Positions 3,178-60,706 of a stretch of 64,000 nt of DNA are shown one piece after another. Numbering within the stretch: position 1 is the stretch's first letter; each line of letters opens with the position of its first letter. This DNA comes from an uncultured Gammaproteobacteria bacterium. Its GTDB lineage: Bacteria > Patescibacteriota > Microgenomatia > JALYQM01. The DNA lies in the NCBI GenBank assembly GCA_964403585.1, contig CAYOFQ010000001.1, positions 1,344,826 to 1,408,825 on the forward strand, given 5' to 3'. The translations under genes were made by a program, and so were the position numbers. The notes beneath the pieces are model-generated. The model made no database searches. It saw only the letters and a program-made list of their open reading frames with translations, and was not told the DNA's origin.

Positions 3178-3202
3178 AAAGCCCTCAATAAGAGGGCCTT
3201 TT
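3176..3202 (-). terminator. Rho-independent terminator hairpin (GCCCTC-AATAA-GAGGGC) flanked by A-run and T-run; terminates the 3227..4450 minus-strand gene
   Basis: 6-bp GC stem (extendable to ~11 bp with one mismatch) at 3181..3197, with TTTT on both strands. Sits immediately 3' of the minus-strand stop at 3227. Confidence 0.6.
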
Positions 3203-3226
3203 AGGAGTATCCGAGCTCAAACAGTA

Positions 3227-24039: not shown

Positions 24040-24068
24040 TTGCCCTACTACCCTATAAGTGGTATAAT
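24040..24068 (+). promoter_or_regulatory. Sigma-70-like promoter TTGCCC-17-TATAAT positioned for a leaderless transcript of the 24075 gene
   Basis: TTGCCC at 24040..24045, 17-nt spacer, TATAAT at 24063..24068, ATG at 24075 (7 nt after the -10). Confidence 0.5.
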
Positions 24069-26024: not shown

Positions 26025-29000
26025 CTAGAAACCCTCCGAATCTCCAACCTTCAGTATATTTTTACAATAATCACATTCCCCAAACGGCTCACGGCAACTG
26101 AATTTTAGTTCCTGAAGTTCTGCCCACATTTCCCTAATCTGTTCCGATACCACCTTCAGATCATCATCAGTTACACTCAATTCGACTGTTGTGAAATTAC
26201 CCTCTTTATCCGGTTCCAAAAATTCCACAATTCCCCGCTCCATCACATGCCCGAACCGTCGGGACATCTTGGTCAATAACTTATAAAAAACAATTTGCCG
26301 CCAGATATCTTCATCAAACGCAACTTTCTTAGCAGCTTTAGAAGAATCGCCTGTTTTAAAGTCATACACGATACATTTACGCGAGACATCATCCGTATAC
26401 TCAATCATATCAATCTTTCCAGTCAATCGGATCTCGTCAAGACAAATCCCATGGTACGAAAAATCGGTTTCTATCTTTACAATCTTAGGTAAGGTACCAA
26501 TTCTATTTTCATAATATTTCGGTAAAAATAACCGACCCCGTTCCAGAGCATCGGCATACTTTGCTCCCACCAGCCAACTCCGCTCCAGCATTTTTTGGTA
26601 AATATTCACCATCTCTTCACTGCTGATCACCTTACCATGTACATTACTTTCAAATAACGCTTCAACGGCCTTGTGCGCAGCAGTTCCAACAACAAGTGCC
26701 GTGTCAGGAACAATGGGGGCACGAATAAAATATTGGTAATAAAACATCCGCGGACATTTCCGGTACGCATTTAAGTGAGAAGCAGATAACGCATAATCCT
26801 GTAACCGTTCTCGTAAATACGCTTTAACTTCGGCATCATAGGATTCGGGTCGCTTTAAGCCAACTAACCGCATGGTCAATTTCTCTTTCTCTGCTTGAGC
26901 ATCAAACCCCATTTCTTCTTTTACAATACCGTCATCTCCCAATTCGGTTACAAATTGAGTCGGTATCTGTTTCTTGCCGTCACCATCAGCTCGGGCATAC
27001 GAAATCACCAGTTCTTGCTTCGCACGCGTTACAGCAACATAAAATAAACGGCGTGCTTCTTCCTCCTGCTGTCTGGCCGCCACTCCTAAATCATTTTCAA
27101 ATAAGTTAAGCGGTAACGGCAGTCGGTCAGCCCGACCTCCTTTTTCCCACTTCCGCTCAATAGAATTCATCAGAAACACGTGTCCATATTCGAGACCCTT
27201 GGATTTATGTACGGTAGTCAAAGAAACTCTTCCTGAAGCCGTTCCTCTGTCACCGAGCGGCAAGGCCAAATTATGCTCCAGCATTTCCACGGCCAACTGT
27301 ACTAAACTGTCAAATGTGGCATTTCGGTCGGACTGAATCGCTCGGCCGAACTCGTTAACCAATGCACCTAATGCCCGTAAGTTCTCCAACTCATTTTCCC
27401 CGGAAGAACTGCACTGTTCTAGAATACCGCTGCTGGAAACAATCTCGCCGATAATCTCCATTGGACTCAATATCCCAATCAAATCTCTCCAGCGCAAAAT
27501 ATTGTTATATAAAGCAGAACAGGAAATTGTATCAATAACACCTGCTTCCATTAATCGCCTGGTATCGCCTAATAAATCAAAATACATCAAAGCTTCCCGG
27601 CGATGTTCAATCGCATACTTATTCATCCGTAGGAATTCCAGCGCCGGAATACCTCCCGCAGCCGATTCCAATAGGTAAAAGAAATTAACATTATCATACG
27701 GATTTCTAATCGCCAGCAGCAATCGCAGAAACTGGCTCACGACCACATTCTCAAACGCATTCTCGCTTCGGGACAACGAGAACGGAATCTCCATACGCTT
27801 CATAAACGGAACCAGTTCCATTAGTTCATTATTTGTTTTCGCCAATACGGCAATTTCATGTGGTTCCACTCCATGATGAATAAGATCCAGTATCTGACGG
27901 GCTATCCAATACTGTTCCGATACACTGTCATCAAAAGACACTATCCGGATTGGCCGCTCTTCAATGGTAAGCCCAGGCTGCAACGCTTTTATAACATCAG
28001 GAATAGCCACCGCAGCTCGGAATTGATTATTCGAAATAAGCAAATCCGCGACTTTTAATATCCTGGGCTGTGAACGATAGTTGTGTACAAGAGAAACCAC
28101 CTTTACCGAATCCTGATATTGACGGGTAAATCCTACAACATTCTCCAATGAAGCTCCCTGAAACCTGAAAATGGATTGATCATCATCTCCCACCACAAAA
28201 ACATTCGGCGAATCGACATCCAATCCAAAGACATCAACCAGTTTATTTTGCGCAGTATTCGTATCCTGATACTCATCTACCAGCACATATTGATACCGCT
28301 CCTGAAAATCCAGACGCATGTTCTGATCACTGGACATCAGGCTAAGGACATTATTGATCATATCCTCGAAGTCATAGCGGCCATTATCGGCCAGCGTCTT
28401 GAGGTACACACGGTAAACTTCGTTAAGCGCTTTCTGATGCTCTATCTTTCCGGATACATGCGTGTAAAAACGCTTCATTTCTTCCTTTAGTTTAGAATAG
28501 CTCACCTTTCCGGTTTTAGTCGGATTCAATAACGCCAACTCCCGGGCTCGAGCAAGCAATAAGCCCGCACTCCGGTACAGATAATCACTTCCATCAACTG
28601 TTTTAGACAGTTCAACAAACGTATCACCAATCTGATCAAGTAATGAATCAGTATACTGCCCGGCATTCTTCCCCATCATTTCCTCAAACAAATCCTTGGT
28701 TCTTTCAGCAAAAACAGCCTGTTCATGAATAAAATGATCCAGCCGATCCGGATCCACACCTTCACGTTTTAATTCACTGATACGCGAAGAGATATCATTT
28801 AAATACAAAACCGGATTATTGACGTGCTTCAAAGGACTTCCGTAGGGAAGTTCTTCCAGTATCCGTGTCAGGTATCTGACACGTTCCAAATCGGTCAGCG
28901 GCAGCAGCTCGGTAGTTTTTATAAACTTCTCCGGATATTCAGACATCACCTCATTGGAAAATGAGTGAAAAGTAGCAACCTTTGAACTATGGCCATCATT

Positions 29001-29240
29001 TCCTAATATTCGAATTAATCGTTCACGCATTGCCGTTACACCGGCATCGGTAAAAGTGAGACACAAAATATTTCCTACCCCAACACCGGTCATACGCATC
29101 AGATTACCGATACGCATGGCCAGAACTTGTGTTTTACCTGTTCCTGCCCCCGCAAGAACCATCATCGGTCCATCAATATGATCAACAGCTTCACGTTGTT
29201 TTTCATTGAGCCGCTTATATAAATCATCAAAGGAAGACAT
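26025..29240 (-). CDS. UvrD/PcrA-family SF1 helicase fused to a C-terminal Cas4/AddB-type PD-(D/E)XK nuclease with 4Fe-4S cysteine cluster
   Basis: Walker A VLAGAGTGKTQVLAMR, then UvrD-like helicase motifs through ~aa 700. C-terminal nuclease has CPRMFYYQY (first Cys), GKIDMIEY, VYDFKTG, and terminal CREPFGECDYC (three Cys). 1071 aa. Confidence 0.8.
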   Translation of the reverse strand: MSSFDDLYKRLNEKQREAVDHIDGPMMVLAGAGTGKTQVLAMRIGNLMRMTGVGVGNILCLTFTDAGVTAMRERLIRILGNDGHSSKVATFHSFSNEVMSEYPEKFIKTTELLPLTDLERVRYLTRILEELPYGSPLKHVNNPVLYLNDISSRISELKREGVDPDRLDHFIHEQAVFAERTKDLFEEMMGKNAGQYTDSLLDQIGDTFVELSKTVDGSDYLYRSAGLLLARARELALLNPTKTGKVSYSKLKEEMKRFYTHVSGKIEHQKALNEVYRVYLKTLADNGRYDFEDMINNVLSLMSSDQNMRLDFQERYQYVLVDEYQDTNTAQNKLVDVFGLDVDSPNVFVVGDDDQSIFRFQGASLENVVGFTRQYQDSVKVVSLVHNYRSQPRILKVADLLISNNQFRAAVAIPDVIKALQPGLTIEERPIRIVSFDDSVSEQYWIARQILDLIHHGVEPHEIAVLAKTNNELMELVPFMKRMEIPFSLSRSENAFENVVVSQFLRLLLAIRNPYDNVNFFYLLESAAGGIPALEFLRMNKYAIEHRREALMYFDLLGDTRRLMEAGVIDTISCSALYNNILRWRDLIGILSPMEIIGEIVSSSGILEQCSSSGENELENLRALGALVNEFGRAIQSDRNATFDSLVQLAVEMLEHNLALPLGDRGTASGRVSLTTVHKSKGLEYGHVFLMNSIERKWEKGGRADRLPLPLNLFENDLGVAARQQEEEARRLFYVAVTRAKQELVISYARADGDGKKQIPTQFVTELGDDGIVKEEMGFDAQAEKEKLTMRLVGLKRPESYDAEVKAYLRERLQDYALSASHLNAYRKCPRMFYYQYFIRAPIVPDTALVVGTAAHKAVEALFESNVHGKVISSEEMVNIYQKMLERSWLVGAKYADALERGRLFLPKYYENRIGTLPKIVKIETDFSYHGICLDEIRLTGKIDMIEYTDDVSRKCIVYDFKTGDSSKAAKKVAFDEDIWRQIVFYKLLTKMSRRFGHVMERGIVEFLEPDKEGNFTTVELSVTDDDLKVVSEQIREMWAELQELKFSCREPFGECDYCKNILKVGDSEGF

Positions 29241-29282
29241 CGCAAGTTATATTAACACAGGAAGTGGTATATAAAAACAACT

Positions 29283-29753
29283 TCAGGAGGCTTCACGAAC
29301 CATCAGAACTTTTTGTTCCTTAAAACCAAGCTTTTTATATAAGTGTAATGCTTTTTCATTCGCAAAATCACAACTCAGTTCCGTATATTCAGTTCCCTGG
29401 CGCTTAAAATAGTCGAATAGTGTTTCAAGTAACCGTGTACCAATGCCTTGACCTCTATAGTCACCATCAACAAATATATTATCAACCTTACCTATACGCT
29501 CTATTTCAAGTTGCGGATTACGCAGGACAACATACCCGCTCACAAAACCAACAACCCGCCCACTCACCTCAGCTACAAAAAAAATACAACTCCGCTGGAG
29601 TAATTCGCGCACATGATCGGCCAGGACAGACTCGGTATCGCGCTTAACCTGATAATATTTTGCATACAGTTCATGATGAAGACTCAAGTTATACCATAAC
29701 CTGCCAACTTCTTCAGCATCCCGTGTTTCTATTCGACGTACAATTTCTGACAT
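29283..29753 (-). CDS. GNAT-family N-acetyltransferase
   Basis: Acetyl-CoA binding motif A (RGQGIGTRLLE). 156 aa. Confidence 0.8.
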   Translation of the reverse strand: MSEIVRRIETRDAEEVGRLWYNLSLHHELYAKYYQVKRDTESVLADHVRELLQRSCIFFVAEVSGRVVGFVSGYVVLRNPQLEIERIGKVDNIFVDGDYRGQGIGTRLLETLFDYFKRQGTEYTELSCDFANEKALHLYKKLGFKEQKVLMVREAS

Positions 29754-29819
29754 GATTACAGTAGTCTATCACCAATTACGGCTCTGGCCAACAATACATT
29801 TTTTCCCTATACTTTACTC

Positions 29820-31901
29820 ATGGATCTTCTGCCGCTGTTACATCCGCAAAGCATTGCCGTGGTCGGTGCCTCCCGTGATCCGGCCAAAATCGGCGCCCAA
29901 ATCCTGGCTAACCTGATTAAAAATAATTTTTCCGGGACAATTATTCCAATAAACCCTAAAGGAGAAGTTATTCAGGGGCACCAGTCGCTAACGTCCATTT
30001 CTGAATACAAAGAACGCCTGGACCTGACCATTATTGCCGTACCACAACCGGTAGTGGAACAAATTATTGATGAATGTATCCGGAATCAAGCCCGCTCTGT
30101 CATCATCATTACTGCTGGATTCAAAGAAGTAGGTAAAGAAGGACAGGAACACGAAGCACGTATTAAAGAAAAACTATTGCAGGCCAAAATACCAGCTTTA
30201 GGGCCAAACTGTTTAGGGCTTATCGCTCCCGGACATAATCTCAACGCCTCATTCGCAGCGCAAATGCCACAGCCCGGAAATATTATGTTTATCTCACAAT
30301 CGGGTGCTTTTGGAACCGCTGCTATTGATTGGGCATCGCATCATCATATTGGGTTCAGCTACTTCATCTCGTTAGGAAATAAAGCCGTCCTTACCGAAAA
30401 CGATTTTCTGCAAAAAGTACCTGAAAATACGAAAGTGATTTCTTTATATTTGGAAGAAATTAGCAACGGCAAAGCATTTATGGAGCAAGCCCAACGCTTG
30501 ACAGTCCGCACACCGATTCTGTTATTAAAACCGGGCAAAAGCGAGAAAGCTGCTTTAGCAGTCAAATCGCACACCGGTTCACTCACCGGCTCAGATAAGA
30601 TACTTTCTGTTGCGGCTCAGCAATCCGGTATTCTTCGTGTTGATTCAACACAGCAATTGTTCGATTTAACCAAAGCGTTCTCCAACTTACCGGAATTAAA
30701 AGGAAATCGGATAGCGGTAATAACCAATGCCGGTGGCCCGGGTATCATCACCACGGATGCACTTGAAACATCCGGACTCGAGCTTGCGCCTATTTCACCC
30801 AAAACCCAGGAAGAGTTAAGCCAACACCTGCCCCGTGAAGCCAATATCCATGACCCGATCGATCTGATTGGTGACGCCAAAGCCGATCGGTATGATCATG
30901 CCTTAAAGGCCGTGATCAACGAAGATACCGTCGATGCCTGTATAGTTATTTTAACCCCGCAATCCTCAACAGAAATTCAAAAAACAGCCGAGAGTATCAT
31001 GTCCCATGTCCAACAAACCCACAAACCGATTTTAGCTGCCTTTTTAGGGGGAACACTGGTAGCGGAAGCCACTCAAACTCTTACTGAACACAATATTCCA
31101 TGCTACACCTATCCCGAACAAGCCGTGTATGTTTTGTCACGCATGTGGGAATACCACAGACAAAAAACCCGCTACCAAACCTTACCGCCATTACAAAACA
31201 TCACGCACATTCAGGATCCTGCGCATCAGGGTCTACTGACAAAAGCTAAGCACGAAAATCGCCCAAGCTTATTACAGGACGAAGTAGAGATTTTCTTTAA
31301 GAAATCGGCAATCAGCTTTCCTCCCCGCGTTACCGTTACTTCAAGCCCAGACGCCATCCAACAAGCAAAGAAAATGGGAACACCGGTTGTGATGAAAGTA
31401 TCTTCGGAAAAAATTATTCATAAGACCGAACAAAAAGCAGTCTACTTAAACCTGCATGATGAAGCACAAATTAAAGAAGCCTATACACAACTTGCCGCGC
31501 TGCTCAAAAAAAATCCTTCTAAAAACAGCTCAATTTATGTACAAAAACAATTACCACCCGGGCTGGAAATACTGCTCGGGATGAAAAGGGATCCCACCTT
31601 TGGACCGGTAATAGTCATTGGCACCGGCGGCACCTACACTGAACTATATCAGGACACTGCTTCTAGAATCGCCCCCTTAACAAAAAACCAGGCAGAGGAA
31701 ATGCTTAAGGAAACTAAAATCTACCAGATCCTCAATGGATATCGCGGCAAAGAAGCCTTTCCACTTGATCCGGTTATACATGCCATATTAAAACTGGCCG
31801 ACCTGAGTCTTACCTACCCGGAAATATCTGAAATCGACATCAACCCGCTCATTGCTACACAATCAGGCATAATAGCCTTGGATGCGCGTATTCTCCTCTA
31901 A
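29820..31901 (+). CDS. Acetyl-CoA synthetase (ADP-forming), fused alpha/beta type (CoA-binding + CoA-ligase + ATP-grasp)
   Basis: N-terminal CoA-binding LHPQSIAVVGASRDPAKIG. Phosphohistidine-loop-like SGSLTGSD/QSGAFGTA. C-terminal ATP-grasp (VVMKVSSEKIIHKTE). 693 aa. TATACT 6 nt upstream of the ATG suggests a leaderless start. Confidence 0.75.
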   Translation: MDLLPLLHPQSIAVVGASRDPAKIGAQILANLIKNNFSGTIIPINPKGEVIQGHQSLTSISEYKERLDLTIIAVPQPVVEQIIDECIRNQARSVIIITAGFKEVGKEGQEHEARIKEKLLQAKIPALGPNCLGLIAPGHNLNASFAAQMPQPGNIMFISQSGAFGTAAIDWASHHHIGFSYFISLGNKAVLTENDFLQKVPENTKVISLYLEEISNGKAFMEQAQRLTVRTPILLLKPGKSEKAALAVKSHTGSLTGSDKILSVAAQQSGILRVDSTQQLFDLTKAFSNLPELKGNRIAVITNAGGPGIITTDALETSGLELAPISPKTQEELSQHLPREANIHDPIDLIGDAKADRYDHALKAVINEDTVDACIVILTPQSSTEIQKTAESIMSHVQQTHKPILAAFLGGTLVAEATQTLTEHNIPCYTYPEQAVYVLSRMWEYHRQKTRYQTLPPLQNITHIQDPAHQGLLTKAKHENRPSLLQDEVEIFFKKSAISFPPRVTVTSSPDAIQQAKKMGTPVVMKVSSEKIIHKTEQKAVYLNLHDEAQIKEAYTQLAALLKKNPSKNSSIYVQKQLPPGLEILLGMKRDPTFGPVIVIGTGGTYTELYQDTASRIAPLTKNQAEEMLKETKIYQILNGYRGKEAFPLDPVIHAILKLADLSLTYPEISEIDINPLIATQSGIIALDARILL

Positions 31902-31928
31902 ATGATATAATGCCTCTCATCAAATAAG

Positions 31929-32702
31929 ATGCATTACCTGGAAATGTCTACCACTATTGAAAGCTTAAGGCTCATCAACCGCACCATCGACGAACGACCA
32001 AAATTGGTCCGGGCGTTACGTCGTATCCACTACTCAGGAGAAATGATCCTGGCTGCGATACTCTTGGCCCGCTGCGGTCAGCCACTGCAAATCCCTCCCA
32101 CCACCATACCTGATCAATCCCGTCCGACAACAGCAGTTGGTACCGAAGGAACCGCACAATCACTTACCCCCATCGGCTCGACTCCCGTTAGCGAGGCAAC
32201 ACCAAACATCGAGGCAGGACGCCAGTTACTGTTTGACGGTTTTTTGGACATTGCGGATCCACAAAGATTAGGTATTACCCAAAACGACTCGGAAGTTGTC
32301 CTGGAAGCCGCCGGAGTAACCGGAATTTCCGGACCACGGTTTCGCAATATATTCAAAGATGCGATAGTCAGTGAAATCTACGACAAAGATACCGAGATTG
32401 GCCGCAGATACGGCCCGTCAATATGTCTACTAGTTGGAAAAAATCAGAAACTATGTATTAATAACCTGTATATTATTAGTGAAGATGCCCGAAGCTCCTA
32501 TGCAAACAAAACTCCACTTCCTATTGATGCCGTCCTGGGGAGTATGGGCTTAACCGCTACCCTTCCAAACTATCCAAATATTCTTCCGGATAGCAATTAC
32601 CGGTCTCCAGTCAGTGCTTTCCGGGACAACAATAAGGTACCGTTACAACAGTTGATTCCCGGATTTACACCGTTTGACACACGACAATTTCCCAGTAACT
32701 AA
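31929..32702 (+). CDS. Hypothetical protein (possible N-terminal membrane anchor)
   Basis: 257-aa ORF. No recognised motif. Confidence 0.35.
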   Translation: MHYLEMSTTIESLRLINRTIDERPKLVRALRRIHYSGEMILAAILLARCGQPLQIPPTTIPDQSRPTTAVGTEGTAQSLTPIGSTPVSEATPNIEAGRQLLFDGFLDIADPQRLGITQNDSEVVLEAAGVTGISGPRFRNIFKDAIVSEIYDKDTEIGRRYGPSICLLVGKNQKLCINNLYIISEDARSSYANKTPLPIDAVLGSMGLTATLPNYPNILPDSNYRSPVSAFRDNNKVPLQQLIPGFTPFDTRQFPSN

Positions 32703-33424
32703 AGAGAGATATCAGTATACACACTGCACGCACGCAGCTCATTCCAAACTGTAGCCGGAGTAGCTGCTACAGTCCCCTCCTTGTTTACTACTCTGCTTAA
32801 AGCCGGTCGCTTGTTTGCCCCCACCACATACGCAAACGTACGGTCAAATTTCATTAAAGCTGGTACTGTTAACGTTATCCGCTCACGATACTGGTTCTTA
32901 TCACCCACATCATATCCCACCGCCAAACGAGAAGTAGCAACCATCTCCCCATTAAAAAAGACTTCATTCTCCGGATACGGAAACATTCCTGCAGTATGGC
33001 CATCCGGCCCCATACCGAGAATACCGAGAATCAGTCCATCACCCATATGTACCTGGTCACTCTCTACGCGCACCCACTCACTGAACCAATACGCACAGTC
33101 TTCAAAAGAATGACCATGCGCCAAAACATCCAAAAAGCGTACCCCACGCTTCTCAAAGTCCGGATAACAGTCCAAAGCAGCTAAAGCACGATAATTACTC
33201 GCAGTTACATCAAACCGTTCATCTACCGGCACAAACCAGGCATCAACGTTCGTAATGCCCTCCACATTTAAGGACACATTTAGTTTCGGGAACAACTCCA
33301 GCACCGAACCACCGGAATAAAAAACCAGTAGTTTTTTACCGGCATTGTTCAAAATAGTCGAAACCAGATCATCAACTAAACTTTGCTGCACTTTTGGTAT
33401 GGAATCCTGGAATACAATCTCCAT
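32699..33424 (-). CDS. pgl: 6-phosphogluconolactonase (Pgl/DevB; NagB-RpiA-like fold)
   Basis: YSGGS, WFVPVDERF and LGMGPDGHTAGMFP match GGSTP ... DER ... LGMGEDGHTASLFP of 6PGL. 241 aa. Confidence 0.7.
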   Translation of the reverse strand: MEIVFQDSIPKVQQSLVDDLVSTILNNAGKKLLVFYSGGSVLELFPKLNVSLNVEGITNVDAWFVPVDERFDVTASNYRALAALDCYPDFEKRGVRFLDVLAHGHSFEDCAYWFSEWVRVESDQVHMGDGLILGILGMGPDGHTAGMFPYPENEVFFNGEMVATSRLAVGYDVGDKNQYRERITLTVPALMKFDRTFAYVVGANKRPALSRVVNKEGTVAATPATVWNELRACSVYTDISL

Positions 33425-33426
33425 AA

Positions 33427-35262
33427 TTAAATTTTCCCTGCACGTGCTTTATTCGTCACACGGAACTTCATGTACTGACCAAGCATTAACCGGGTTTGTG
33501 CATCCAACGCCGGAATCGTACCAAAGGTCAAAATAATGACCGGAATCAGCAGCCATTGCAAAAACGTAAATATCTTGCTGTACCAGCGCCACCCCTTAGG
33601 TCGAGGTGGAACTATTTTTTCATGCATATAGATTGTTAAGAAAAGACTAAGAAATGTAAACGTCAATATATACGACGAAAAGATTGGTAAATTCTGCGAA
33701 GCGGTTGTTTTATCAAAAGTCGGGTTAAATATCGGAATAACCATGCCACCAAACGTAACCAGCAAGGCTAAAGTTGCCCACGAGCCGTAAGACCATAAGA
33801 CAAACAGCAACTTTCCGGTCTTATCAAAGAAAGGAACGTCTTTATTTTTAAAATAGCTGGTTACAATATACGGAATATGTTCCACTCCATATGCCCAACG
33901 GCGGTACTGCAAATACTGGTTCTGAAGCGTTTTTACAAAAGTAACATCCTGTACTGCGTCAGCCGATAACGGCAAAAAGTGCGGAACAACACGGTAGTCC
34001 CCATTGAAGTGATAATACGCTTTCCAATAAAACCCGGAGTCGTCGTTAACTTTATCCGGCATCCATAAACCTAATTCCCATAACGACTGAAAGTTCATGG
34101 TTAAAGAAGCAAAATTAACGTATTTATCACTGTACGCCATTTCCGACAACTGCCAGAAAGCAGTAGATACCGCCATCACACGCATTGGCGCCGGAGTCGT
34201 CCAATAATTATTATTGTATAAAAAGACTCCTGTTAGTGAACGCTTATCACGTTCCTCTGCCGGCAATGACAGATACTTATACGTTGCTCCAGCTATAAAT
34301 TGTGGATGAATGACAAAATCTGCATCTAAAGTAGTAACCAGTACATCCTTTAAATTAACACCCATTTTATCGAACTCTAACTTGGCATTGCGCAGTGCAC
34401 TGTTACGATTGGTTGCCGGACCTTGCAGCTCCCCTTCCTGTAAACGGTTTACCGAAACAAATATGCCGCCAATTTTATCTCCATACTTCTCGCGTAAATA
34501 CTGGGCATTACGTGGACCAATCTCGGTATCCCGTTCTTCCAGACCAAGCGCTATAAATAGCCTGTCTTTCGGATAGTTAGACTCGGCTATCGCCTTAAAA
34601 TTCGGCTCTAACACTTCCAGGCTCTCTTTATACGTAGGAATAGCAAACAGATGGTAAATCCGCTTCACATCTTCAGGATAGTCCTGCTCAACTTTAGCTT
34701 TCCAGTCGATCTTTTCCGCTTCACGCATCTTGCGATACCCGATAATAACAAAAAAAGCAATTCGCATAGCTTTAAAGAACCAGTAAACATCCGCGACAAT
34801 AACCAGATAAATTAAGGCTAAAGGCAATCGCAGCGCCAGTAAAATTGGTGAGAGCAAAACAAGATAAGTAAGGAACCCGGGAAGAATTTCCAGCCCGCGA
34901 TTGATCTGCTTCTGGTACCGTTGCGCTGCCGAAAGTTCTCTATCCTGAGACAACAAAAACCCTTTATACAGAATGTGATGAACAACAATTCCCACACCAA
35001 AGGCGTAAATAAATGAGTATAAACCGGTGGAAATACTCATACCATTCACCAGTGACATAATATGCAAAACCGCACCGAGAAAAACAAATAACAACCCCGT
35101 ATAGGTATAATTATATTCTCTGATCCGCTCATGCATTTTCTCAAACAAACGGCGAACAAAAATGTCCGTTACAAAAAAACCGGACATGAAGGAGATGAAC
35201 AAAATAGCAAGGATATACATAAATGTATAGTAATTATACCAACCTTCCTTGGGAATAACCAA
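33427..35262 (-). CDS. Membrane-embedded processive family-2 glycosyltransferase (cellulose/PNAG/hyaluronan-synthase-like)
   Basis: DxD-type TLDADFVIHPQF. Processive GT2 QxxRW motif QYRRWAYG. Multiple N- and C-terminal TM helices. The true start may be the internal ATG at 35220. Confidence 0.8.
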   Translation of the reverse strand: MVIPKEGWYNYYTFMYILAILFISFMSGFFVTDIFVRRLFEKMHERIREYNYTYTGLLFVFLGAVLHIMSLVNGMSISTGLYSFIYAFGVGIVVHHILYKGFLLSQDRELSAAQRYQKQINRGLEILPGFLTYLVLLSPILLALRLPLALIYLVIVADVYWFFKAMRIAFFVIIGYRKMREAEKIDWKAKVEQDYPEDVKRIYHLFAIPTYKESLEVLEPNFKAIAESNYPKDRLFIALGLEERDTEIGPRNAQYLREKYGDKIGGIFVSVNRLQEGELQGPATNRNSALRNAKLEFDKMGVNLKDVLVTTLDADFVIHPQFIAGATYKYLSLPAEERDKRSLTGVFLYNNNYWTTPAPMRVMAVSTAFWQLSEMAYSDKYVNFASLTMNFQSLWELGLWMPDKVNDDSGFYWKAYYHFNGDYRVVPHFLPLSADAVQDVTFVKTLQNQYLQYRRWAYGVEHIPYIVTSYFKNKDVPFFDKTGKLLFVLWSYGSWATLALLVTFGGMVIPIFNPTFDKTTASQNLPIFSSYILTFTFLSLFLTIYMHEKIVPPRPKGWRWYSKIFTFLQWLLIPVIILTFGTIPALDAQTRLMLGQYMKFRVTNKARAGKI

Positions 35263-35268
35263 ATAAGC

Positions 35269-35300
35269 AAAAAGGCTATTCTTCTTAGAAGAATAGCCTT
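35269..35300 (-). terminator. Rho-independent terminator (13-bp perfect stem AAGGCTATTCTTC/GAAGAATAGCCTT, 3-nt loop) followed by U-run on the minus strand; terminates ppa
   Basis: Perfect palindrome 35272..35300. The A-run at 35269..35273 gives the U-tract on the minus strand. Lies 3' of the ppa stop (35319). Confidence 0.65.
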
Positions 35301-35318
35301 AGAGTAGCAGTCTGGAAA

Positions 35319-35837
35319 CTACTTTATTCCCTTTTTCACTTCTTCCAACGCCACATCTGCACCCTTCCAGTCACGAATCTTGATCCACTTACCCGGCTCA
35401 AGTTCTTTATAGTGCTCAAAGAAATGCTTCATTTTATTTCGCAAAGCTTCAGGAAGCTCGGAAATATCTTTATAAACACCATACACAGGATCAATTTTAG
35501 CAGTAGGTACAGCTACCAGTTTGGTATCAATTCCCTCTTCATCTTCCATATCCAACATACCAATTACTACTGAAGGAATAACTACACCCGGTACAACCGA
35601 TTTATCCGAAAGAACCAGTACATCGAGTGGATCTCCGTCATCAGCCAAAGTTCCGGGTATAAAACCATAGTTAAACGGATACGACATCGCGGTATAGAGG
35701 AATCGATCAACGAATACCACACCTGAATCTTTGTCTAATTCGTACTTAATTGACCCGCCCTGCGGAATCTCAATAAATACATTTAAAATCTTCTTCTCTT
35801 CCTTGTTCCAAGGCTTGAGTGACAAAACACCGGACAT
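35319..35837 (-). CDS. ppa: Inorganic pyrophosphatase, family I
   Basis: [27 protein letters not shown] ... [10 protein letters not shown] are classic family-I PPase signatures. 172 aa. GGGAGGT SD. Confidence 0.9.
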
Positions 35838-36161
35838 AAGACCTCCCGTAAATTAGGTAATAACAAAGCGATTGTACCGATTTTAAGGCTAATTGTCGAT
35901 ACTCGACACGTGACCTATAGCACTCTCAAAAAGCCAATTTTTATGGTATAATACACCATCCTGAAGTACTGGCCAGAATATTTGAGTTCAAAACCGGTAT
36001 GCAGGATAATTGTTCTTTAACATACCGCATATATCTACATTCCTAATAGAGGTTCAGGCCACTTGCGCGTGCAAGCCGGCAACGTAATAATCCCAATTGT
36101 TACGCTCCCGGTTTGCGCGACAGCAGACAATCGAAACCTGAACTGAAAAAAAGGAAAGACC

Positions 36162-37085
36162 ATGAACCTCAACCTTCGCAGACCGGCAACGCTGCTGGCT
36201 CTGCTCATGCTCATCTTGATGGGCACCACACCACCACCCGCCCGCGCTCAAGGAGACGGCTGCTTCGACAACGGCTTCTGCATCTCAGGCCGCATCCGTG
36301 AGTTTTGGGAACAGAACGGCGGCCTGCCGGTATTTGGCTTGCCGGTCGGCCCGCAACACAGCGAAAACATCGGTGGGAAAGTCTACCAGGTGCAACAGTT
36401 CGAGCGCAACAGGCTCGAGCTGCACCCCGAGAACGCCCGCCCGTACGATGTACTTCTCGGCCGATTAGGCGCCGCAGCCTTCAATGGCGACGCCTGGATG
36501 ACCTGGCCAAAGGCGATCCCCGAGGAATCGCCACGCTATTTCGCCGAAACCGGGCACACCATCCACACGGCATTCTGGCCGACCTGGAGTAATCGCTGCT
36601 TGAGGGCCGATCCCGCCGCACAATTCCCATGCACCCGGGCTGAGAGTCTTGCACTCTTTGGCCTGCCGTTAACCGAAGCATGGACGGAGAAAGGCTCAGA
36701 TGGTAAGAGCTACCTGACCCAATGGTTCGAACGGGCGCGTTTCGAGTATCACCCCGAGAATATCGGGACTCCGTACGATGTGCTGCTGGGGCTACTCGGC
36801 TCGCAACCGACCAAGGCCATCTATCCGGCTCACTTCTCCTACGACAGATCGACATACAGCGACTACACTACTAAATTCGCCAGCAAGACCGTCGGAGGCC
36901 TTGTGTACTACATTCAAAACAACGGTGGTGCAGTTAACTACTGGAAAGAAGGCGATCTCCTAGCAACGCCAATCATCACAGGTAACGCATCCTACGAAAT
37001 CGCAGACGGGCTAATAGTATACCTCAACGACCACGATCACATCTCCATCGACATCGAGCCCGCCAAATGGGAACTTACGTTCTAG
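36162..37085 (+). CDS. Secreted repeat protein encoded in a high-GC island (signal peptide; two repeats of an FGLP ... RFEYHPEN..PYDVLLG motif, LGFP-repeat-like)
   Basis: Signal peptide MNLNLRRPATLLALLMLILMG...ARAQG. Repeats VFGLPVGPQ..QQFERNRLELHPENARPYDVLLGRLG and LFGLPLTEA..QWFERARFEYHPENIGTPYDVLLGLLG. Codon usage is shifted to GC-rich codons (CTG, GGC, CGC, CCG). The overlapping ORFs 36035..36855 are GC-driven artefacts. Confidence 0.6.
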   Translation: MNLNLRRPATLLALLMLILMGTTPPPARAQGDGCFDNGFCISGRIREFWEQNGGLPVFGLPVGPQHSENIGGKVYQVQQFERNRLELHPENARPYDVLLGRLGAAAFNGDAWMTWPKAIPEESPRYFAETGHTIHTAFWPTWSNRCLRADPAAQFPCTRAESLALFGLPLTEAWTEKGSDGKSYLTQWFERARFEYHPENIGTPYDVLLGLLGSQPTKAIYPAHFSYDRSTYSDYTTKFASKTVGGLVYYIQNNGGAVNYWKEGDLLATPIITGNASYEIADGLIVYLNDHDHISIDIEPAKWELTF

Positions 37086-37122
37086 CTTCTTGATCGGTAC
37101 GCACGTCAGTATGCAACGTAAA

Positions 37123-38106
37123 CTATTTTGCGTATTTCTTACCCAAATCAGTCAATATCCGTCCGCGTGGTGTACGCTGTAAAAATCCTTTTTGAAGTAA
37201 AAACGGTTCCAGAACATCCTCAAGTGTCCCAACATCTTCAGATAAAGCCGCGGCTAATGTCTCCAATCCTACCGGTCCGTCACCAAATTTTTTATGGATT
37301 GTCTCTAACACCCGACGGTCACTTGCGTCCATCCCGTGTTCATCTACATCCAGCATTTCCAAAGCTTTATTTACTACATTTTTATCTATATCCTTACCAC
37401 CATGTTTCACTTGCACAAAATCCCTCACTCGTTTTAACAGTCTGTTGGCAATACGAGGCGTACCTCTACTTCTTTTCGCCAACTCCTGAGCGGCTTCCAT
37501 ATCTATCACTACACCAAGTACTTCGGATGCCCGAACAATAATCTTGAAAAGTGCATTATCGCTGTAATATTCCAACCGGTGAATAATTCCAAAACGATCG
37601 CGCAGTGGCGAGGACAGTAACCCTACCCGGGTTGTCGCTCCGATAATCGTAAACTTCGGCAAATCCAGCCGTACATTTCGTGCCGAAGGCCCCTTGCCAA
37701 TCACAATATCCAACGCATAATCTTCCATTGCCGGATACAGCACTTCTTCCACTACCCTGTTCAAACGATGAATTTCATCAATAAAAAGAATATCTCCCGG
37801 CTGTAAATTAGTTAAAATCGATGCCAAGTCGCCCGCCCGCTCAATAGCCGGACCGGAAGTCACACGAATCGATACCCCCATCTCATTCGCAATGACATGG
37901 GATATCGTTGTTTTTCCAAGCCCTGGGGGTCCGTAAAACAACAAATGATCCAGTGAATCTCCACGCTGTCGCGCGGCTTCCAAAGAGATGATCAAGTTTT
38001 CTTTCATCTTCTCCTGGCCGATATACTCATCAAGTTTCTTCGGTCGAAGCGAAAGATCCAATTGTTCATCTTCGGTATTTTCAATTTTTGAAGATACTAT
38101 TGACAT
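37123..38106 (-). CDS. ruvB: Holliday junction branch-migration helicase RuvB
   Basis: Walker [13 protein letters not shown]. Walker [11 protein letters not shown]. Sensor and C-terminal winged helix. 327 aa. Confidence 0.95.
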
Positions 38107-38110
38107 AATA

Positions 38111-38743
38111 TTATTTCATTTTTACCTGACTTAGTTTTTTTCTATCCATCTGACGTAAACCCACATCCAGCAGGACTCCATTAAGATGTCCTTTCATACG
38201 ATCTCCATCAGGTCGAGCATTAAACTTCTGCTGCACATCTGGAAAAGCACCTCCAAAGCTAAGGGAATTTTCTTTAGTGGTACCGGTAATTACAACCAAT
38301 TCACCATCATCACTACGTTCCAAATGCAAATCTTCCGGTTTCGGACCTCTCTCATCAAGCAAGGCCACTCCCGCAGGAACAATATTAACCAGGACATCCG
38401 GTAAAACAACCGGCCGCTTATCAGTAAAAAGAGGTGCATGATCAAAAACCCTCATCGAAACGGTTACTCCCCCAACAGAATCAACAACAGCCTGCTTAAA
38501 AGGAATTTCTGATTGTTGCAATACTGTCCCCACTGCAGCAAGTAACCGCAGTTGATCTGCTTCTCCCATGTCACCAAACTTTTGTTCCTCTGCTACATTA
38601 GGATGTTCACCCATAAATTTCATTGTAATACGTGTTGGAACGAGTTTCTCCCCATTACGTTCAGGTATTTTAGGAAGTACCATCGTTTCTCCAACATAGC
38701 TACTACCTTTACCGGTGTGTAACTCAGATCCAAAATCACTCAT
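38111..38743 (-). CDS. Hypothetical protein, paralog 1 of a tandem pair embedded between ruvA and ruvB
   Basis: Starts MSDFGSE. Shares a conserved segment ([16 protein letters not shown]...GGVTV) with the upstream paralog. No known domain recognised. Confidence 0.45.
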
Positions 38744-38752
38744 ATATATCCT

Positions 38753-39442
38753 TTACTTATGCGCAACACCTTCTAGTTTGGAAGGTTCAGCCTTTTCAAT
38801 AGTAACTCGACCATCAGATTTCCGTACCAAATGTGCAACTGCTTTCTTTTCAGGCGGGCGCGCCATCGAATTTTCACTTACACCGTATCCCCCGTTTGTT
38901 AATCGTTTACCGGTAATAATAGTACGGTACGTTACTCCTGCATCATCTGTTTCAAGCCGGGCATTTGGTTGTTTATCAGAGTATAGAAGTACATCGAGTC
39001 CACCTTCCAATACCCCATTAAGATAACAACTGGTAAACGGCACCTGTGTTTCCTGTAAATAATGGGCCACTGCTCCCAGCAGAGCTTCCTGTTCTTCCGG
39101 ACGATAACGTGCAATAGAAACCATCGCTCCCTCTCTTTTTTCTCTCTCCAACCAAACTCGTTTCTTCCCTTCACGGTATTTTTCTGCTATGACCTCACGC
39201 CAGCTCAAAGGCTCTTCTTTCGGACCAGAGGACGAAGAAAAAAGATACTTTAACGTAATTTTCGGCAAAGAATAATCGGGTACTTTCTCCGGTCGTGGTG
39301 GTGGAACGGGAAAAGTAATTTGTGCCTGCTCAAGATGCGGGGCTGTTTCCCAATACTCTGAATTTCCCCAATGAGTTTCAGTAAGTACAAGAGTTTGTCT
39401 TGAGTCAACTGCGGCTCCATACTCTCCTCCAAAGTCACTCAT
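38753..39442 (-). CDS. Hypothetical protein, paralog 2 of the tandem pair embedded between ruvA and ruvB
   Basis: Starts MSDFGGE. Has LLGAVAHYLQETQVPF...GGLDVLLY homologous to paralog 1. 9-nt gap to paralog 1 and 17-nt gap from ruvA. Confidence 0.45.
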   Translation of the reverse strand: MSDFGGEYGAAVDSRQTLVLTETHWGNSEYWETAPHLEQAQITFPVPPPRPEKVPDYSLPKITLKYLFSSSSGPKEEPLSWREVIAEKYREGKKRVWLEREKREGAMVSIARYRPEEQEALLGAVAHYLQETQVPFTSCYLNGVLEGGLDVLLYSDKQPNARLETDDAGVTYRTIITGKRLTNGGYGVSENSMARPPEKKAVAHLVRKSDGRVTIEKAEPSKLEGVAHK

Positions 39443-53899: not shown

Positions 53900-56800
53900 A
53901 TGCTTAAAAAAGGTAAAAATACCCTCCTCGGATTCATCATAATAGCTCTGTTTACCTATATACTTTCACTTGTAGTACCTCCTGCCAACTTTTCACCTAC
54001 CCCGGTTAACGCTGAAGGCGGGTTCACGTTTGTCACCACCGGCGACTATGGATATAACAGCATCGCTACAGCCACGCTCAACAAAATTAAAGAACTCAAC
54101 CCGGCGTTTAGCCTCACAAACGGCGATCTAAGCTACGATGAGATCACTCCTGAATCAGCCTGGTGCTCCTACGTTAAAGGAATTGTCGGGGAAACTTTTC
54201 CCTTCGAAATTGTAGCAGGGAACCACGAAGCCGGCGACCCTCCCGGTGGACATATTGATAACTTTACCCCATGTCTTCCTCACCGCATGGATAATATTTC
54301 CGGCACCTATGGCTGGGAATACTACTTTGACCATCAAAACGCCCGGTTTATTCAAATATCTCCTGGAATGGCCGAAGGGCCGCTACTACTGGATTACAGC
54401 CTTGGATCGAGCCATTACAACTGGACAGCCAATGCGATTGACTCAGCTCGTGCTAAAGGTATCAAATGGATCATTGTAACCATGCACGAAAACTGCATTA
54501 CCATGGGCGACAAAACCTGTGATATCGGCCCGGATATACTTAATCTCCTTATAGAAAAGAAAGTTGATCTCATTTTTCAGGGTCATGATCACACGTACCA
54601 GCGGAGCAAACAGCTGGCGTTTAACCCTAATTGTCCCCGAATTATCCCTGGCAACTACAATAGCAATTGCGTGTCCAATACGGGGTCAAATGGAGCATAT
54701 GCTAAAGGGGCAGGAAGCATCTTGAATATTGTTGGAACAGCCGGAGCTGGACTATATACAGTCAACACAGCCGACTCGGAAGCTGGATACTTCGCTAAAT
54801 GGATGGGCTCCAATAACCAGCCACGACACGGACTGGTTAAAGTTACCGTTACCGAAAATCAGCTGGTAGCTTCATTTGTCGGCTCAACTACCGAATCATC
54901 CTTCACAGATTCATATACAATTACCGACACATCCGTAACACCTACTCCAAGCTCGTCGGTAGCACCAACAGCTACCCCGATTCCCACCTTTACGCCAATA
55001 CGACTCACCACCGGCAATAACTATACCGATCCAAGCAATAACCAGTGGAATCATGACGCCAGCTACGCCGACGGCGGCTCTACCTACACCACTACCAACA
55101 CAATCGCAAATACCACAACACCGAAATTGTATCAGTCTGAACGATACGGTAAGGACATTAACTATGGATTTAATGTACCCAATGGAACATATGAAGTAAA
55201 AGTTAAGTTTTCGGAAATTTATTTTACCCAAGCCGGCGAACGAATTTTTAACCTCAATCTAAACGGAAACCTGGTTCTCGAAAATTTTGACATTCTCTCC
55301 GAAGTTGCACCCTTCTCCGCACTCGACAAGACCTTTACGGTAAATGTAACCGATCAAAAAATTAACCTGGATTTCTCTACAACCAAAGATAATGCCAAAC
55401 TTGCTGCACTCGAGATTACTCGTATCAGCGGCCCATCACCAACCGTATCTCCAACTCCCAGCCCATCAGTGAGCCCAACAGCGACCCCCACTCCAAGCTT
55501 CACTCCAATTCGACTCAACACCGGTACAACAACAGTAGATACACAAAACCAAACCTGGATCAGCGACAATGGCAAAGTTTCAGGAGGAACTACCTACACG
55601 GTTAATAGCACAATCGCTAATACAAGTAACCAGAAACTCTTCCAATCCGAACGCTACGGAAATACATTTAACTATACATTTACTGTCCCTAATGGCAATT
55701 ACACCGTTAACCTTAACTTCTCTGAAATATATTTCACGCAGGCTGGTGAACGCATTTTTAACGTTGATATCAACGGGAACCGGGTACTGTCAAATTACGA
55801 TATCCTGGCACAAACAGCTCCATATGCTGCCGTCACTAAATCCTTTCCGGCAACAGTTACCGACGGTAAAATTGTCATAAATTTCACTACCGTAAAGGAC
55901 AATGCTAAAATTGCCTCCTTAGAGATTGTATCGTCATCTGGGCCAACTACTTCACCAACAGCCAGTCCATCCCCAACACCAACTACTACCCCAACTCCAA
56001 CCCCGACAACAACCCCTACACCAACCCCTACTTTCTCACCGATTCGACTGAATACCGGAACGTCAGTGCTCGACACACAAAACAATACCTGGTCTACCGA
56101 TACAGCTCAAAACGCAGGTGGAGAAACGTATACGGTCAATAACACGATCGCCAATACTGCCAATCCAAAATTATTCCAGTCCGAACGCTATGGTCAAACC
56201 CTTACCTACAACTTTACCGTCCCCAACGGTTCGTATAACCTCAACTTAAATCTTTCAGAAATCTACTTCACCCAGGCCGGCGAACGTATCTTCAATGTTG
56301 ATATTAATGGAACACGAGTCCTCAGCAACTTTGATATTCTCACCCAGGTTGCACCATTCACCGCACTCACAAAATCCTTCCCGGTTACGGTTACCAATGG
56401 TAAGATCCAAATTGTCTTTACGACAATTAAAGACAACGCCAAATTGGCTTCACTGGAAATTGTACCGGCAACCAATCCGACAGCAACTCCACAACCAACA
56501 ATTACACCAACGCCTACCGTTACACCAACCCCATCAACCACGGCAACACCCACCCCTACTCCAACCACAACGCCAACTCCGGTCCCCAGTGGTGTTGTTA
56601 ACGGACTAAACGCCACCTATTACGATAATATGGATTTTACAGGCACATCTGTTACCCGAATTGATCCACAAGTATACTTTGACTGGATGCACGGAGCGCC
56701 AACACCATCCATGGGCACCGATACCTTCTCCGCCCGTTGGACAGGATTCATCGTACCCAATTACTCCGAGAACTATACTTTTTACACCGATTCCGACGAC

Positions 56801-57019
56801 GGGGTTCGCGTTTGGATAAATAACGTTCTGATTATAGATAAATGGATCGACCAGGGAGTAACTGAGCATTCGGGGTCAATCGTTTTACAAGCCAACCAGA
56901 AGTATGCGGTTAAAGTTGAGTATTACGATAACTCGGGTGGTGCCAGCTGCAAACTGCGCTGGAGCTCCGTATCTCAAGTTAAACAAACTGTTCCACAAAG
57001 CGCCTTCTTAACGCAGTAA
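53900..57019 (+). CDS. Large secreted multidomain protein: calcineurin-like metallophosphoesterase (purple-acid-phosphatase-like) + 3 tandem malectin-like carbohydrate-binding domains separated by PT linkers + C-terminal PA14 domain
   Basis: Signal/TM. MPE motifs GDLSYDE, GNHEAG, GHDHTYQRS. Three ~170-aa repeats each with LYQSERYG/LFQSERYG ... SEIYFTQAGERIFN ... DILS/DILAQ ... DNAK(L/I)A(A/S)LEI, the malectin-like pattern. PA14 region ATYYDNMDFTG..FSARWTGFIVPNYSENYTFYTDSDDGVRVWINN..YAVKVEYYDN. Confidence 0.8.
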   Translation: MLKKGKNTLLGFIIIALFTYILSLVVPPANFSPTPVNAEGGFTFVTTGDYGYNSIATATLNKIKELNPAFSLTNGDLSYDEITPESAWCSYVKGIVGETFPFEIVAGNHEAGDPPGGHIDNFTPCLPHRMDNISGTYGWEYYFDHQNARFIQISPGMAEGPLLLDYSLGSSHYNWTANAIDSARAKGIKWIIVTMHENCITMGDKTCDIGPDILNLLIEKKVDLIFQGHDHTYQRSKQLAFNPNCPRIIPGNYNSNCVSNTGSNGAYAKGAGSILNIVGTAGAGLYTVNTADSEAGYFAKWMGSNNQPRHGLVKVTVTENQLVASFVGSTTESSFTDSYTITDTSVTPTPSSSVAPTATPIPTFTPIRLTTGNNYTDPSNNQWNHDASYADGGSTYTTTNTIANTTTPKLYQSERYGKDINYGFNVPNGTYEVKVKFSEIYFTQAGERIFNLNLNGNLVLENFDILSEVAPFSALDKTFTVNVTDQKINLDFSTTKDNAKLAALEITRISGPSPTVSPTPSPSVSPTATPTPSFTPIRLNTGTTTVDTQNQTWISDNGKVSGGTTYTVNSTIANTSNQKLFQSERYGNTFNYTFTVPNGNYTVNLNFSEIYFTQAGERIFNVDINGNRVLSNYDILAQTAPYAAVTKSFPATVTDGKIVINFTTVKDNAKIASLEIVSSSGPTTSPTASPSPTPTTTPTPTPTTTPTPTPTFSPIRLNTGTSVLDTQNNTWSTDTAQNAGGETYTVNNTIANTANPKLFQSERYGQTLTYNFTVPNGSYNLNLNLSEIYFTQAGERIFNVDINGTRVLSNFDILTQVAPFTALTKSFPVTVTNGKIQIVFTTIKDNAKLASLEIVPATNPTATPQPTITPTPTVTPTPSTTATPTPTPTTTPTPVPSGVVNGLNATYYDNMDFTGTSVTRIDPQVYFDWMHGAPTPSMGTDTFSARWTGFIVPNYSENYTFYTDSDDGVRVWINNVLIIDKWIDQGVTEHSGSIVLQANQKYAVKVEYYDNSGGASCKLRWSSVSQVKQTVPQSAFLTQ

Positions 57020-57685: not shown

Positions 57686-57707
57686 TACAAAATGTTATAA
57701 TAATACA

Positions 57708-60670: not shown

Positions 60671-60706
60671 GAGGATATTATACCAGATAGACGGGCAAAA
60701 CCCGAA

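Follow-up and report, generated by a model that had tools for sequence, protein, structure and literature searches.

A GC-rich gene with a Chloroflexota-type module between ruvB and ppa of an uncultured low-GC lineage: a probable case of single-gene horizontal acquisition

In a window of 64,000 nucleotides (the whole stretch of DNA analyzed here, taken from contig CAYOFQ010000001.1), the genes encoding inorganic pyrophosphatase (ppa) and RuvB (ruvB) are separated by a block of about 1 kb that is far richer in guanine and cytosine (GC) than its surroundings and that carries a gene for a 307-residue protein with a predicted signal peptide and two internal repeats (termed here the island gene and the island protein). 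This raises the question of how such a gene came to lie between two core genes of a low-GC genome, namely whether it was acquired from elsewhere, represents an old native gene of unusual bias or was wrongly joined to its flanks upon assembly. We consider it probable, and hold with good confidence, that a single gene was acquired horizontally from a Chloroflexota-type donor of some 59-60% GC and entered a turnover hotspot between ruvB and ppa. The features of the locus are listed in Table 1.

When read in 200-bp windows, GC content rises from 0.41 (35900-36099) to 0.575-0.635 (36100-36699), before declining to 0.50 by 36800 and to 0.43 by 37100. The highest-GC 800-bp bin of the 64-kb window is that at 36001-36800 (0.576), and the 1,036-bp block spanning 36050 to 37085 has a GC content of 0.568 (z = 5.6), as compared to 0.428 +/- 0.025 in all other blocks of the same size, with a maximum of 0.513. 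The sharp rise near 36050 and drop near 37100 seen in a preliminary description of this DNA are, accordingly, borne out. Of the extent proposed there (36045-37110), the left edge holds, as a boundary at about 36050 can be read directly from the sequence, yet the core of elevated raw GC, as delimited by a two-change-point likelihood fit, is narrower, covering 36177-36829 (0.611 inside versus 0.424 outside; log-likelihood ratio 36.8). This reflects the final 92 codons of the island gene, which have a raw GC content of 0.50 and specify many Tyr, Asn, Ile, Lys and Thr residues. GC at third codon positions (GC3) is nonetheless 0.645 in these same codons, such that the entire open reading frame (ORF) is compositionally foreign. 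The notion that transfer was only partial, with the C-terminal third of the gene arising from read-through into native DNA, was rejected, given this GC3 value and the lack of any match in the corresponding interval of relatives.

Codon counts confirm the favored codons listed in the preliminary description, with GGC serving for 16 of 28 Gly, CGC for 7 of 16 Arg, CCG for 10 of 22 Pro and GCC for 11 of 27 Ala, and with CTG and CTC each serving for 9 of 31 Leu. The block contains one real ORF, as had been claimed, together with six overlapping ORFs of at least 60 residues in other frames; such a pile-up, also described earlier, is expected of GC-rich DNA, in which stop codons are few.

Could high GC reflect no more than a bias particular to an old native gene, be it in amino acid composition or in expression-linked codon choice? 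Raw GC is indeed driven in part by amino acid content here, with GC at second codon positions (GC2) being 0.46, as compared to 0.30-0.36 in neighboring genes. Moreover, amino acid composition is what brings one other ORF of the window (3227-4450, minus strand; 407 residues; no Pfam match), found in the second-highest GC bin (0.52 at 3201-4000), to a GC content of 0.49; as the GC3 of this ORF is only 0.375, it is not another foreign island. In the island gene, by contrast, the excess is strongest at synonymous sites. Across 52 non-overlapping ORFs of at least 120 residues in the window, GC3 averages 0.402 (standard deviation 0.062) and the runner-up to the island gene reaches 0.508, as opposed to the 0.695 of the island gene itself. 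The gene, therefore, presents the deviating synonymous-site composition by which horizontally acquired islets are recognized. The same explanation is addressed again below, in light of the corresponding loci of relatives.

A foreign composition would also result were a Chloroflexi fragment wrongly joined into the genome during assembly, a possibility raised in the preliminary description. The abrupt change near 36050 would be in line with such contamination, as would the metagenomic source of the genome, in which Chloroflexi may co-occur. The exact 307-residue protein forms a singleton cluster and was found only in a 1,573,555-bp NCBI contig and in two Logan contigs, L001 and L002, these being separate single-run assemblies of SRR16481186 and SRR16481187. 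L001 matches window positions 26162-37795, and L002 positions 31346-37795, at 100% identity. Each contig thus spans both junctions, with host sequence extending beyond the junction near ppa for 10 kb in L001 and for 4.8 kb in L002, and with 0.67 kb of ruvB being included at the other end. Both end at 37795, within ruvB, at the Walker B codons (DILFIDEIH), which represent the most conserved stretch of RuvB. The shared end indicates that the assembly graph branches nearby, which is again a point in favor of a chimera; still, such branching likely arises from k-mers common to the ruvB genes of other species, or from strain variation, and the k-mers shared in the Walker B codons would suffice to explain the break. 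Considering that, at either junction, no base differs between the NCBI contig and the two single-run assemblies, that no junction repeat able to seed a false join was detected, and that the insert comprises one complete gene lying exactly between intact flanks, in a slot that varies in seven relatives, a chimeric join is disfavored at the assembly level and is very improbable.

Relatives of the window lineage were drawn from among the members of the ppa cluster defined at 90% and from the list of nearest RuvB homologs. These share the gene order ruvC-ruvA-(x)-ruvB-(slot)-ppa-597-residue membrane protein-GlcN isomerase. In the relative designated L088, the RuvB of which is 89% identical to that of the window, the slot is empty, consisting of a 116-bp spacer. 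Elsewhere, the slot holds a 104-residue ORF with a lipoprotein-like leader (L083; RuvB 90% identical), an unrelated leader-bearing protein of 302 residues encoded on the opposite strand (L084 and L085; 89%), a 286-residue protein with a RelA_SpoT domain (L086 and L087; 82-83%), a 171-residue protein (JGI 3300071358; 84%), proteins of 733 and 131 residues (JGI 3300050046, the closest relative; 93%) or ORFs of 75 and 53 residues (L090; 79%). The island gene is, as such, absent from the slot in all seven syntenic lineages, with the 733-residue protein having been set apart solely on the basis of no protein of this length appearing among the top matches of the island protein. Those cargo proteins that were sequenced are unrelated to one another and to the island protein, and three of the four for which the sequence was read bear signal- or lipoprotein-type leaders.

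At the DNA level, ppa is 80-83% identical to that of relatives, with homology ending at 35839-35902, and ruvB is 73-78% identical, with homology ending at 37131-37163. Between these points lies a non-homologous interval of about 35903-37130, of which 36050-37085 is the GC-rich part. No remnants of the cargo genes of relatives were found in the window, and only the cargo of the window lineage departs strongly from host GC, with the other cargo genes lying within about 0.06 of their loci. Comparison of ppa-ruvB intervals, proposed in the preliminary description as a means of recognizing an ancient native gene, hence revealed the same gene with the same composition in none of the seven lineages, one of which presents an empty site, leaving a native origin unsupported. 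Given also that no second copy of the module described below was found in the window or in the loci of relatives, and that all named homologs of the module are from Chloroflexota, we attach very little credence to the island gene being an old native gene.

The ruvB-ppa slot is a hotspot of gene turnover in this lineage. Hotspots of integration or gene turnover between conserved core genes are a concept of comparative genomics that comes from cultivated bacteria. As in known hotspots, the flanks are conserved here (RuvB, 79-93% protein identity across relatives; ppa), with the interval containing unrelated accessory genes or nothing. Unlike known hotspots, the slot contains no integrase, tRNA, transposase or flanking repeats, and its cargo amounts to only one or two genes, in an uncultured lineage with a small genome. 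The window contains no tRNA, searches of PHROGs and PADLOC yielded no match, no integrase or transposase is encoded in the insert, and comparison of the flanks yielded only chance-level matches of 10-18 nt, with neither target-site duplications nor terminal inverted repeats being seen. The insert, which carries a single non-mobility gene, does not qualify as a mobile genetic element, be it an integrative element, an insertion sequence or a prophage remnant.

Two further observations concern variable cargo at these loci. The stand-alone 286-residue RelA_SpoT protein of one relative (L086, 6942-7802, minus strand; L087, 34-894, minus strand) resembles small alarmone synthetases and gives a faint match to the PADLOC candidate PDC-S33 (E 7.8e-4), and so may be cargo of the toxin or defense type. 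A second variable slot lies between ruvA and ruvB, where the window encodes proteins of 210 residues (38111-38743, minus strand) and 229 residues (38753-39442, minus strand) that show no Pfam or NCBIfam match, are weakly paralogous to one another (E 2.7e-5) and are encoded at unusually low GC3 (0.29 and 0.32, respectively). In relatives, this second slot is empty (L088, L086 and L090) or encodes proteins of 201 residues (L083) or 169 residues (L084); among the proteins encoded there, only those of 210 residues and of 201 residues from L083 are faintly similar (E 3.6e-4).

As to the source of the island gene, 4,941 homologs of the N-terminal two-thirds of the protein were obtained at E<=1e-3, with the best sharing 55-64% identity across 60-70% of the query (E 1e-60 to 1e-71). 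All homologs bearing an organism name are from Chloroflexota (Kouleothrix, Roseiflexaceae, Chloroflexales or 'Chloroflexota bacterium'), such that the protein homology search advised in the preliminary description indeed points to one donor lineage. The closest homolog for which DNA was read, P0005, shares 63% protein identity and 69% DNA identity over 543 nt and lies on a contig (L091) with a GC content of 0.588, with the gene presenting a GC3 of 0.77. For the module alone, GC and GC3 are 0.605 and 0.78 in P0005 and 0.606 and 0.72 in the island gene; a Kouleothrix locus is more extreme (GC 0.66, GC3 0.89). The nearest homologs of the island gene are thus found in another lineage of matching composition, as is the case for acquired islets. 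When metagenomes were scanned with the island protein, 10 distant loci only (24-57% identity) were obtained, each of which matches the GC of its own contig. Since homologs resemble their surroundings in this respect, the direction of transfer was into the low-GC genome. Transfer in the opposite sense, with the module having arisen in the low-GC lineage and then spread to Chloroflexi, is scarcely credible, as thousands of diverse paralogous copies exist in high-GC genomes and match their surroundings in GC, whereas the present genome offers one copy, of a composition unlike that of the host.

Codon usage and tetranucleotide composition were also considered. For native genes, the log-likelihood under host codon usage exceeds that under Kouleothrix usage by 120-250 units; the island gene, by contrast, fits both equally well (-383 versus -384), as would be expected of a donor of about 59% GC or of partial adaptation to host composition. 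The composition-normalized tetranucleotide correlation of the island with a Kouleothrix contig is 0.52, as compared to 0.19 +/- 0.11 (maximum 0.40) for other 1-kb pieces of the window; the correlation of the island with the host is 0.42, as compared to an average of 0.58 +/- 0.075 for other 1-kb pieces. In sliding-window GC and tetranucleotide comparisons, both of which had been recommended, the island is accordingly the compositional outlier of the window. Named homologs, GC match and tetranucleotide signature in this manner support the horizontal acquisition from a high-GC donor that was proposed earlier, with the donor being of the Chloroflexota type.

The identity of the recipient was addressed using MnmA. 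This protein has about 24 close relatives at 63-88% identity that form a tight clade, followed by a gap down to 41-49%, below which all named matches are assigned to the Patescibacteria group, the Microgenomates group, Shapirobacteria or Falkowbacteria. The more similar named homologs of ppa include a Roizmanbacteria assembly and a Patescibacteria metagenome-assembled genome (L008), in which ppa adjoins ruvC-ruvA-ruvB. A scan of genome contigs with the ppa protein returned, among the matches listed, ppa of unrelated phyla at 48-72% identity and no close relatives. Taken with the 1.57-Mb contig and the GC content of 0.43, these protein similarities suggest that the recipient is a discrete and sparsely sampled lineage with a small genome, affiliated with Patescibacteria/candidate phyla radiation.

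What, then, does the acquired gene encode? The predicted Sec-type signal peptide presents an RR n-region, a hydrophobic core and an A-x-A cleavage motif (A-R-A before Q); the AlphaFold2 model places a helix at residues 8-21, and homologs align with equivalent N-terminal leaders. There follows a double-repeat module of the Chloroflexi type, which opens with a conserved C34-x5-C40 pair and contains two repeat cores that are 53% identical (E 2e-14), with a DNA spacing of 330 nt. Each repeat comprises a G-x-I-x3-W helix, an F-G-L-P motif and a strand region of the form Q-x-F-E-R-x-R-x-E-x-H-P-E-N...P-Y-D-V-L-L-G-x-L-G. The island protein resembles members of the module family over the full length of the module and, like them, places the module after a signal peptide and ahead of a variable payload. 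All 31 invariant columns of the family are kept, including W49, G53, Q78-x-F80, R82, R84, E86, H88-P89, D96-V97 and G100-R101 and, in the second repeat, Q187-x-F189-E190, R193, E195, H197 and N200. In addition, 74 of the 83 positions conserved in at least 90% of members are retained, with departures being mostly conservative. The AlphaFold2 model of the module, obtained from an 80-sequence alignment, is confident (pLDDT 87, pTM 0.80).

Searches with the island protein assigned the module to no Pfam or NCBIfam family, and sequence and profile searches yielded no PDB relative. Foldseek comparison to the PDB returned only noise (full model, E of at least 0.047; module only, E of at least 0.6 and TM about 0.15). 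In family proteins, the module precedes varied payloads, namely CAP, lamin-tail, SMP-30 beta-propeller, glucosaminidase, SH3_3, PD40, GH99-like and Excalibur domains, and, in Chloroflexi, hundreds of different secreted proteins are headed by it. Such an arrangement is what would be expected of a module that targets or anchors proteins, and the module most likely binds or anchors to a cell-envelope polymer or glycan. Relative to P0002 of Kouleothrix (UniRef 'SMP-30/gluconolactonase/LRE') and to P0045 (lamin tail domain) and P0090 (CAP domain) of Roseiflexaceae, the island protein is 55-64% identical over residues ~31-215 and, like these proteins, contains the module directly after the signal peptide, with all 31 invariant positions. 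Unlike these Chloroflexales members, the island gene lies in a low-GC, Patescibacteria-affiliated genome and ends in a unique tail of about 90 residues, rather than in a recognizable Pfam domain. Finally, both Cys of the G-C-R-F-F...V-C-G consensus found in the linker are missing from the island protein, as they are from P0004.

The repeats had been described as LGFP-like. The LGFP repeat has been proposed as a means by which proteins are attached to the cell wall. It corresponds to Pfam PF08310, was described by Adindla et al. (2004; PMC2447325) and occurs in cell-surface proteins of Actinobacteria, Corynebacterium PS1 being one example. The claim of a signal-peptide protein with two repeats stands, while the LGFP assignment does so only in part, since sub-threshold similarity is seen in members of the module family and none is seen in the island protein, which has no PF08310 match even at E<=1. 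Of 80 family members, the best scores 21.0 bits, as compared to a gathering cut-off of 22 bits, and 44 show sub-threshold matches that cover only profile positions 32-51 of 53 and that map to the G-x-I-x3-W-x3-G helix preceding the second F-G-L-P motif. Like LGFP proteins, members of the module family are signal-peptide proteins built of units of about 54 residues or more, in which a periodic G-x-I-x3-W-x3-G helix is followed by an (L/F)G(L/F)P motif and by G...Q-x-F...aromatic strands. With tandem LGFP-type units of about 54 residues, the two F-G-L-P repeats of the island protein agree in part only, as they are 53% identical to one another but about 108 residues apart, with a linker. Unlike LGFP, the module family also has its own invariant signature (Q-x-F-E-R-x-R-x-E-x-H-P-E-N...P-Y-D-V-L-L-G, with C-x5-C at the start), always contains exactly two repeats separated by a linker of about 50 residues, and has named members in Chloroflexota rather than in Actinobacteria. 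Judged by sequence, 'LGFP-like' describes a marginal resemblance and not family membership.

Of 1.84 billion representative proteins, only three match the C-terminal tail, and these weakly; each is a large protein in which Ig-like domains recur (Big_13 in P0258; Ig_7 in P0259 and P0260). A weak match to PDB entry 5hon_A (E 0.003) was also seen. AlphaFold2 predicts eight beta strands, albeit at low confidence (pLDDT 27-55), and the tail may be an Ig-like beta-sandwich payload. This part of the protein bears on the main rival explanation as to function, namely that the transfer was real but that the gene is a functionless, decaying passenger under relaxed constraint, with the orphan tail perhaps being the truncated remnant of a larger payload. 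The singleton status of the protein, a length of 307 residues where most homologs comprise 320-530, a tail almost devoid of homologs and of low-confidence fold, a conserved-position score at the family minimum and the lack of a convincing promoter close to the ATG would all be in agreement with this. At the same time, the reading frame is intact, complete with signal peptide, Shine-Dalgarno-like site and both repeats; the invariant family positions are all kept; and the tail, rather than being disordered, is predicted to form eight beta strands in compact succession. Domain-only members of about 220 residues (P0004 and P0005) also exist, and therefore short forms are normal. Overall, a decaying passenger is unlikely, if worth keeping in mind.

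Returning to the acquisition of a gene from a Chloroflexota-type donor, it can be proposed that about 1.0 kb of DNA, consisting of a short leader and one complete gene, was taken up by the recipient of about 43% GC. Environmental DNA uptake, followed by illegitimate or flank-guided recombination, would be the default guess as to the route of entry. The gene is probably transcribed from the AT-rich, host-type promoter region upstream of the leader and would be translated from the Shine-Dalgarno-like AAGGA (36151-36155), found 6 nt before the ATG, with the product then being exported via the Sec pathway. The mature protein would consist of the two-repeat module, binding an envelope polymer, and a small beta-rich payload, either at the cell surface or secreted.

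Candidate promoters are found in the interval between ppa and the leader (35838-36049), the GC content of which is 0.37. The extended -10 element described earlier is present, albeit 2 nt from where it had been placed. Since the pattern TGNTATAAT occurs seven times in the window, as compared to 3.6 expected, the copy upstream of the island gene is weak evidence by itself. Still, several other copies directly precede start codons, such that the host seems to use the element. Copies of TGNTATAAT are located at 24060-24068 (plus strand), 60677-60685 (minus), 31903-31911 (plus), 35233-35241 (minus) and 57693-57701 (plus), with several lying 7-18 nt before starts, for example 7 nt before the ATG at 24075 and the start at 60670, suggesting leaderless or very-short-leader mRNAs in this genome. 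The promoter candidate of ppa lies in the part still conserved with relatives, as DNA homology to L083 and L084 reaches 35878-35902. Downstream, no terminator-like hairpin was seen in the gap between the island gene and ruvB. The assignment of both flanking genes in the preliminary description is confirmed by Pfam.

Table 1. Coordinates and supporting evidence for features of the ruvB-ppa locus (window positions).
Feature	Position	Strand	Basis or remark
ppa (inorganic pyrophosphatase), left flank of slot	35319..35837	-	Pfam PF00719, E 1.7e-56
Sigma-70-like promoter candidate of ppa, TCGACA-17-TACAAT	35871..35899	-	10/12 consensus matches; putative function
AT-rich spacer with candidate promoters for island gene	35903..36049	.	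No DNA match in relatives
Extended -10 TGGTATAAT, 210 nt upstream of island ATG	35944..35952	+	Motif match; putative use here
Second promoter-like site, TTGAGT-17-GATAAT	35982..36010	+	9/12 matches; consensus match only
GC-richer (0.51) 5' leader, presumed to have arrived with gene	36050..36161	+	Composition; no homology to relatives
Island gene, 307 aa	36162..37085	+	GC 0.575, GC3 0.695
Predicted Sec-type signal peptide, MNLNLRRPATLLALLMLILMGTTPPPARA followed by QG, residues 1-29	36162..36248	+	Read from sequence
Chloroflexi-type N-terminal double-repeat module, residues 31-215 (~185 aa)	36252..36806	+	Homology
Repeat core 1, residues 54-104, GLPVFGLP...QQFERNRLELHPEN..PYDVLLGRLG	36321..36473	+	Internal repeat, families D1, D2
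Repeat core 2, residues 162-214, SLALFGLP...QWFERARFEYHPEN..PYDVLLGLLG	36645..36803	+	Internal repeat
C-terminal beta-rich tail (predicted), residues 216-307	36807..37082	+	Near-orphan payload, GC3 0.645
Gap between convergent stop codons of island gene and ruvB, 37 bp	37086..37122	.	
ruvB, right flank of slot	37123..38106	-	Pfam RuvB_N, AAA_lid_4, RuvB_C

Two other genes of the window deserve mention. The neighbor of ppa (33427-35262, minus strand) encodes a multi-pass membrane protein of about 597-611 residues that is 75-86% identical across the clade, matching GT2 only faintly (E 0.013) and no NCBIfam family; the extended -10 copy at 35233-35241 suggests that its true start is that of the shorter, 597-residue form, as called in L002. 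Further away, the gene at 53900-57019 (plus strand) encodes a 1,039-residue protein combining a metallophosphoesterase, three malectin and a PA14 domain, and hence representing, for so small a genome, a large protein of the carbohydrate-binding surface type.

Several points weigh against the acquisition of a functional gene from a Chloroflexota-type donor, as favored here. The two Logan runs may share a project with the NCBI genome, and so, although assembled independently, need not stem from independent samples. The phylum of the recipient is deduced solely from how distant homologs are named. The transfer was, moreover, initially termed recent; while transfer itself is supported, recency is only relative, as the nearest sampled homolog is just 63-64% identical at the protein level and 69% at the DNA level, such that the donor is defined by type only. 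As for the protein, similarity to LGFP covers only some 18 residues and lies below threshold, the module has no known binding function in any organism nor a Pfam, NCBIfam or PDB relative, and retention of 74 of 83 conserved positions, being the family minimum, would also fit relaxed constraint. Lastly, the island protein is a singleton, and selection upon it is accordingly no more than putative.

A more far-reaching proposal holds that the recipient is a Patescibacteria-type symbiont living on the surface of other cells that secretes the captured Chloroflexi module as an adhesin, so as to dock on filaments. According to this proposal, filamentous Chloroflexi would themselves use the module to place their own secreted proteins on the wall or sheath. 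We deem this doubtful; the idea of a borrowed host envelope-targeting module is attractive but unsupported, and a literature search returned nothing relevant on Patescibacteria together with Kouleothrix. Were it true, the gene would identify the host of the symbiont (filaments of the Kouleothrix or Roseiflexaceae type), and strains would swap host-interaction genes at the ruvB-ppa slot, which would then serve as a cassette site.

Taken as it stands, the event is a well-documented and fairly ordinary instance of single-gene horizontal transfer into a sparsely sampled, small-genome lineage near Patescibacteria. The intergenic slot that received the gene shows turnover in every sampled relative, with no visible mobile-element machinery. 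Should the recipient be an episymbiont, the lineage of the donor may serve as an ecological pointer to the partner with which the recipient lives. For its part, the two-repeat module, with thousands of family members, no Pfam, NCBIfam or PDB counterpart and a confidently predicted fold, is a candidate for a new envelope-targeting domain.

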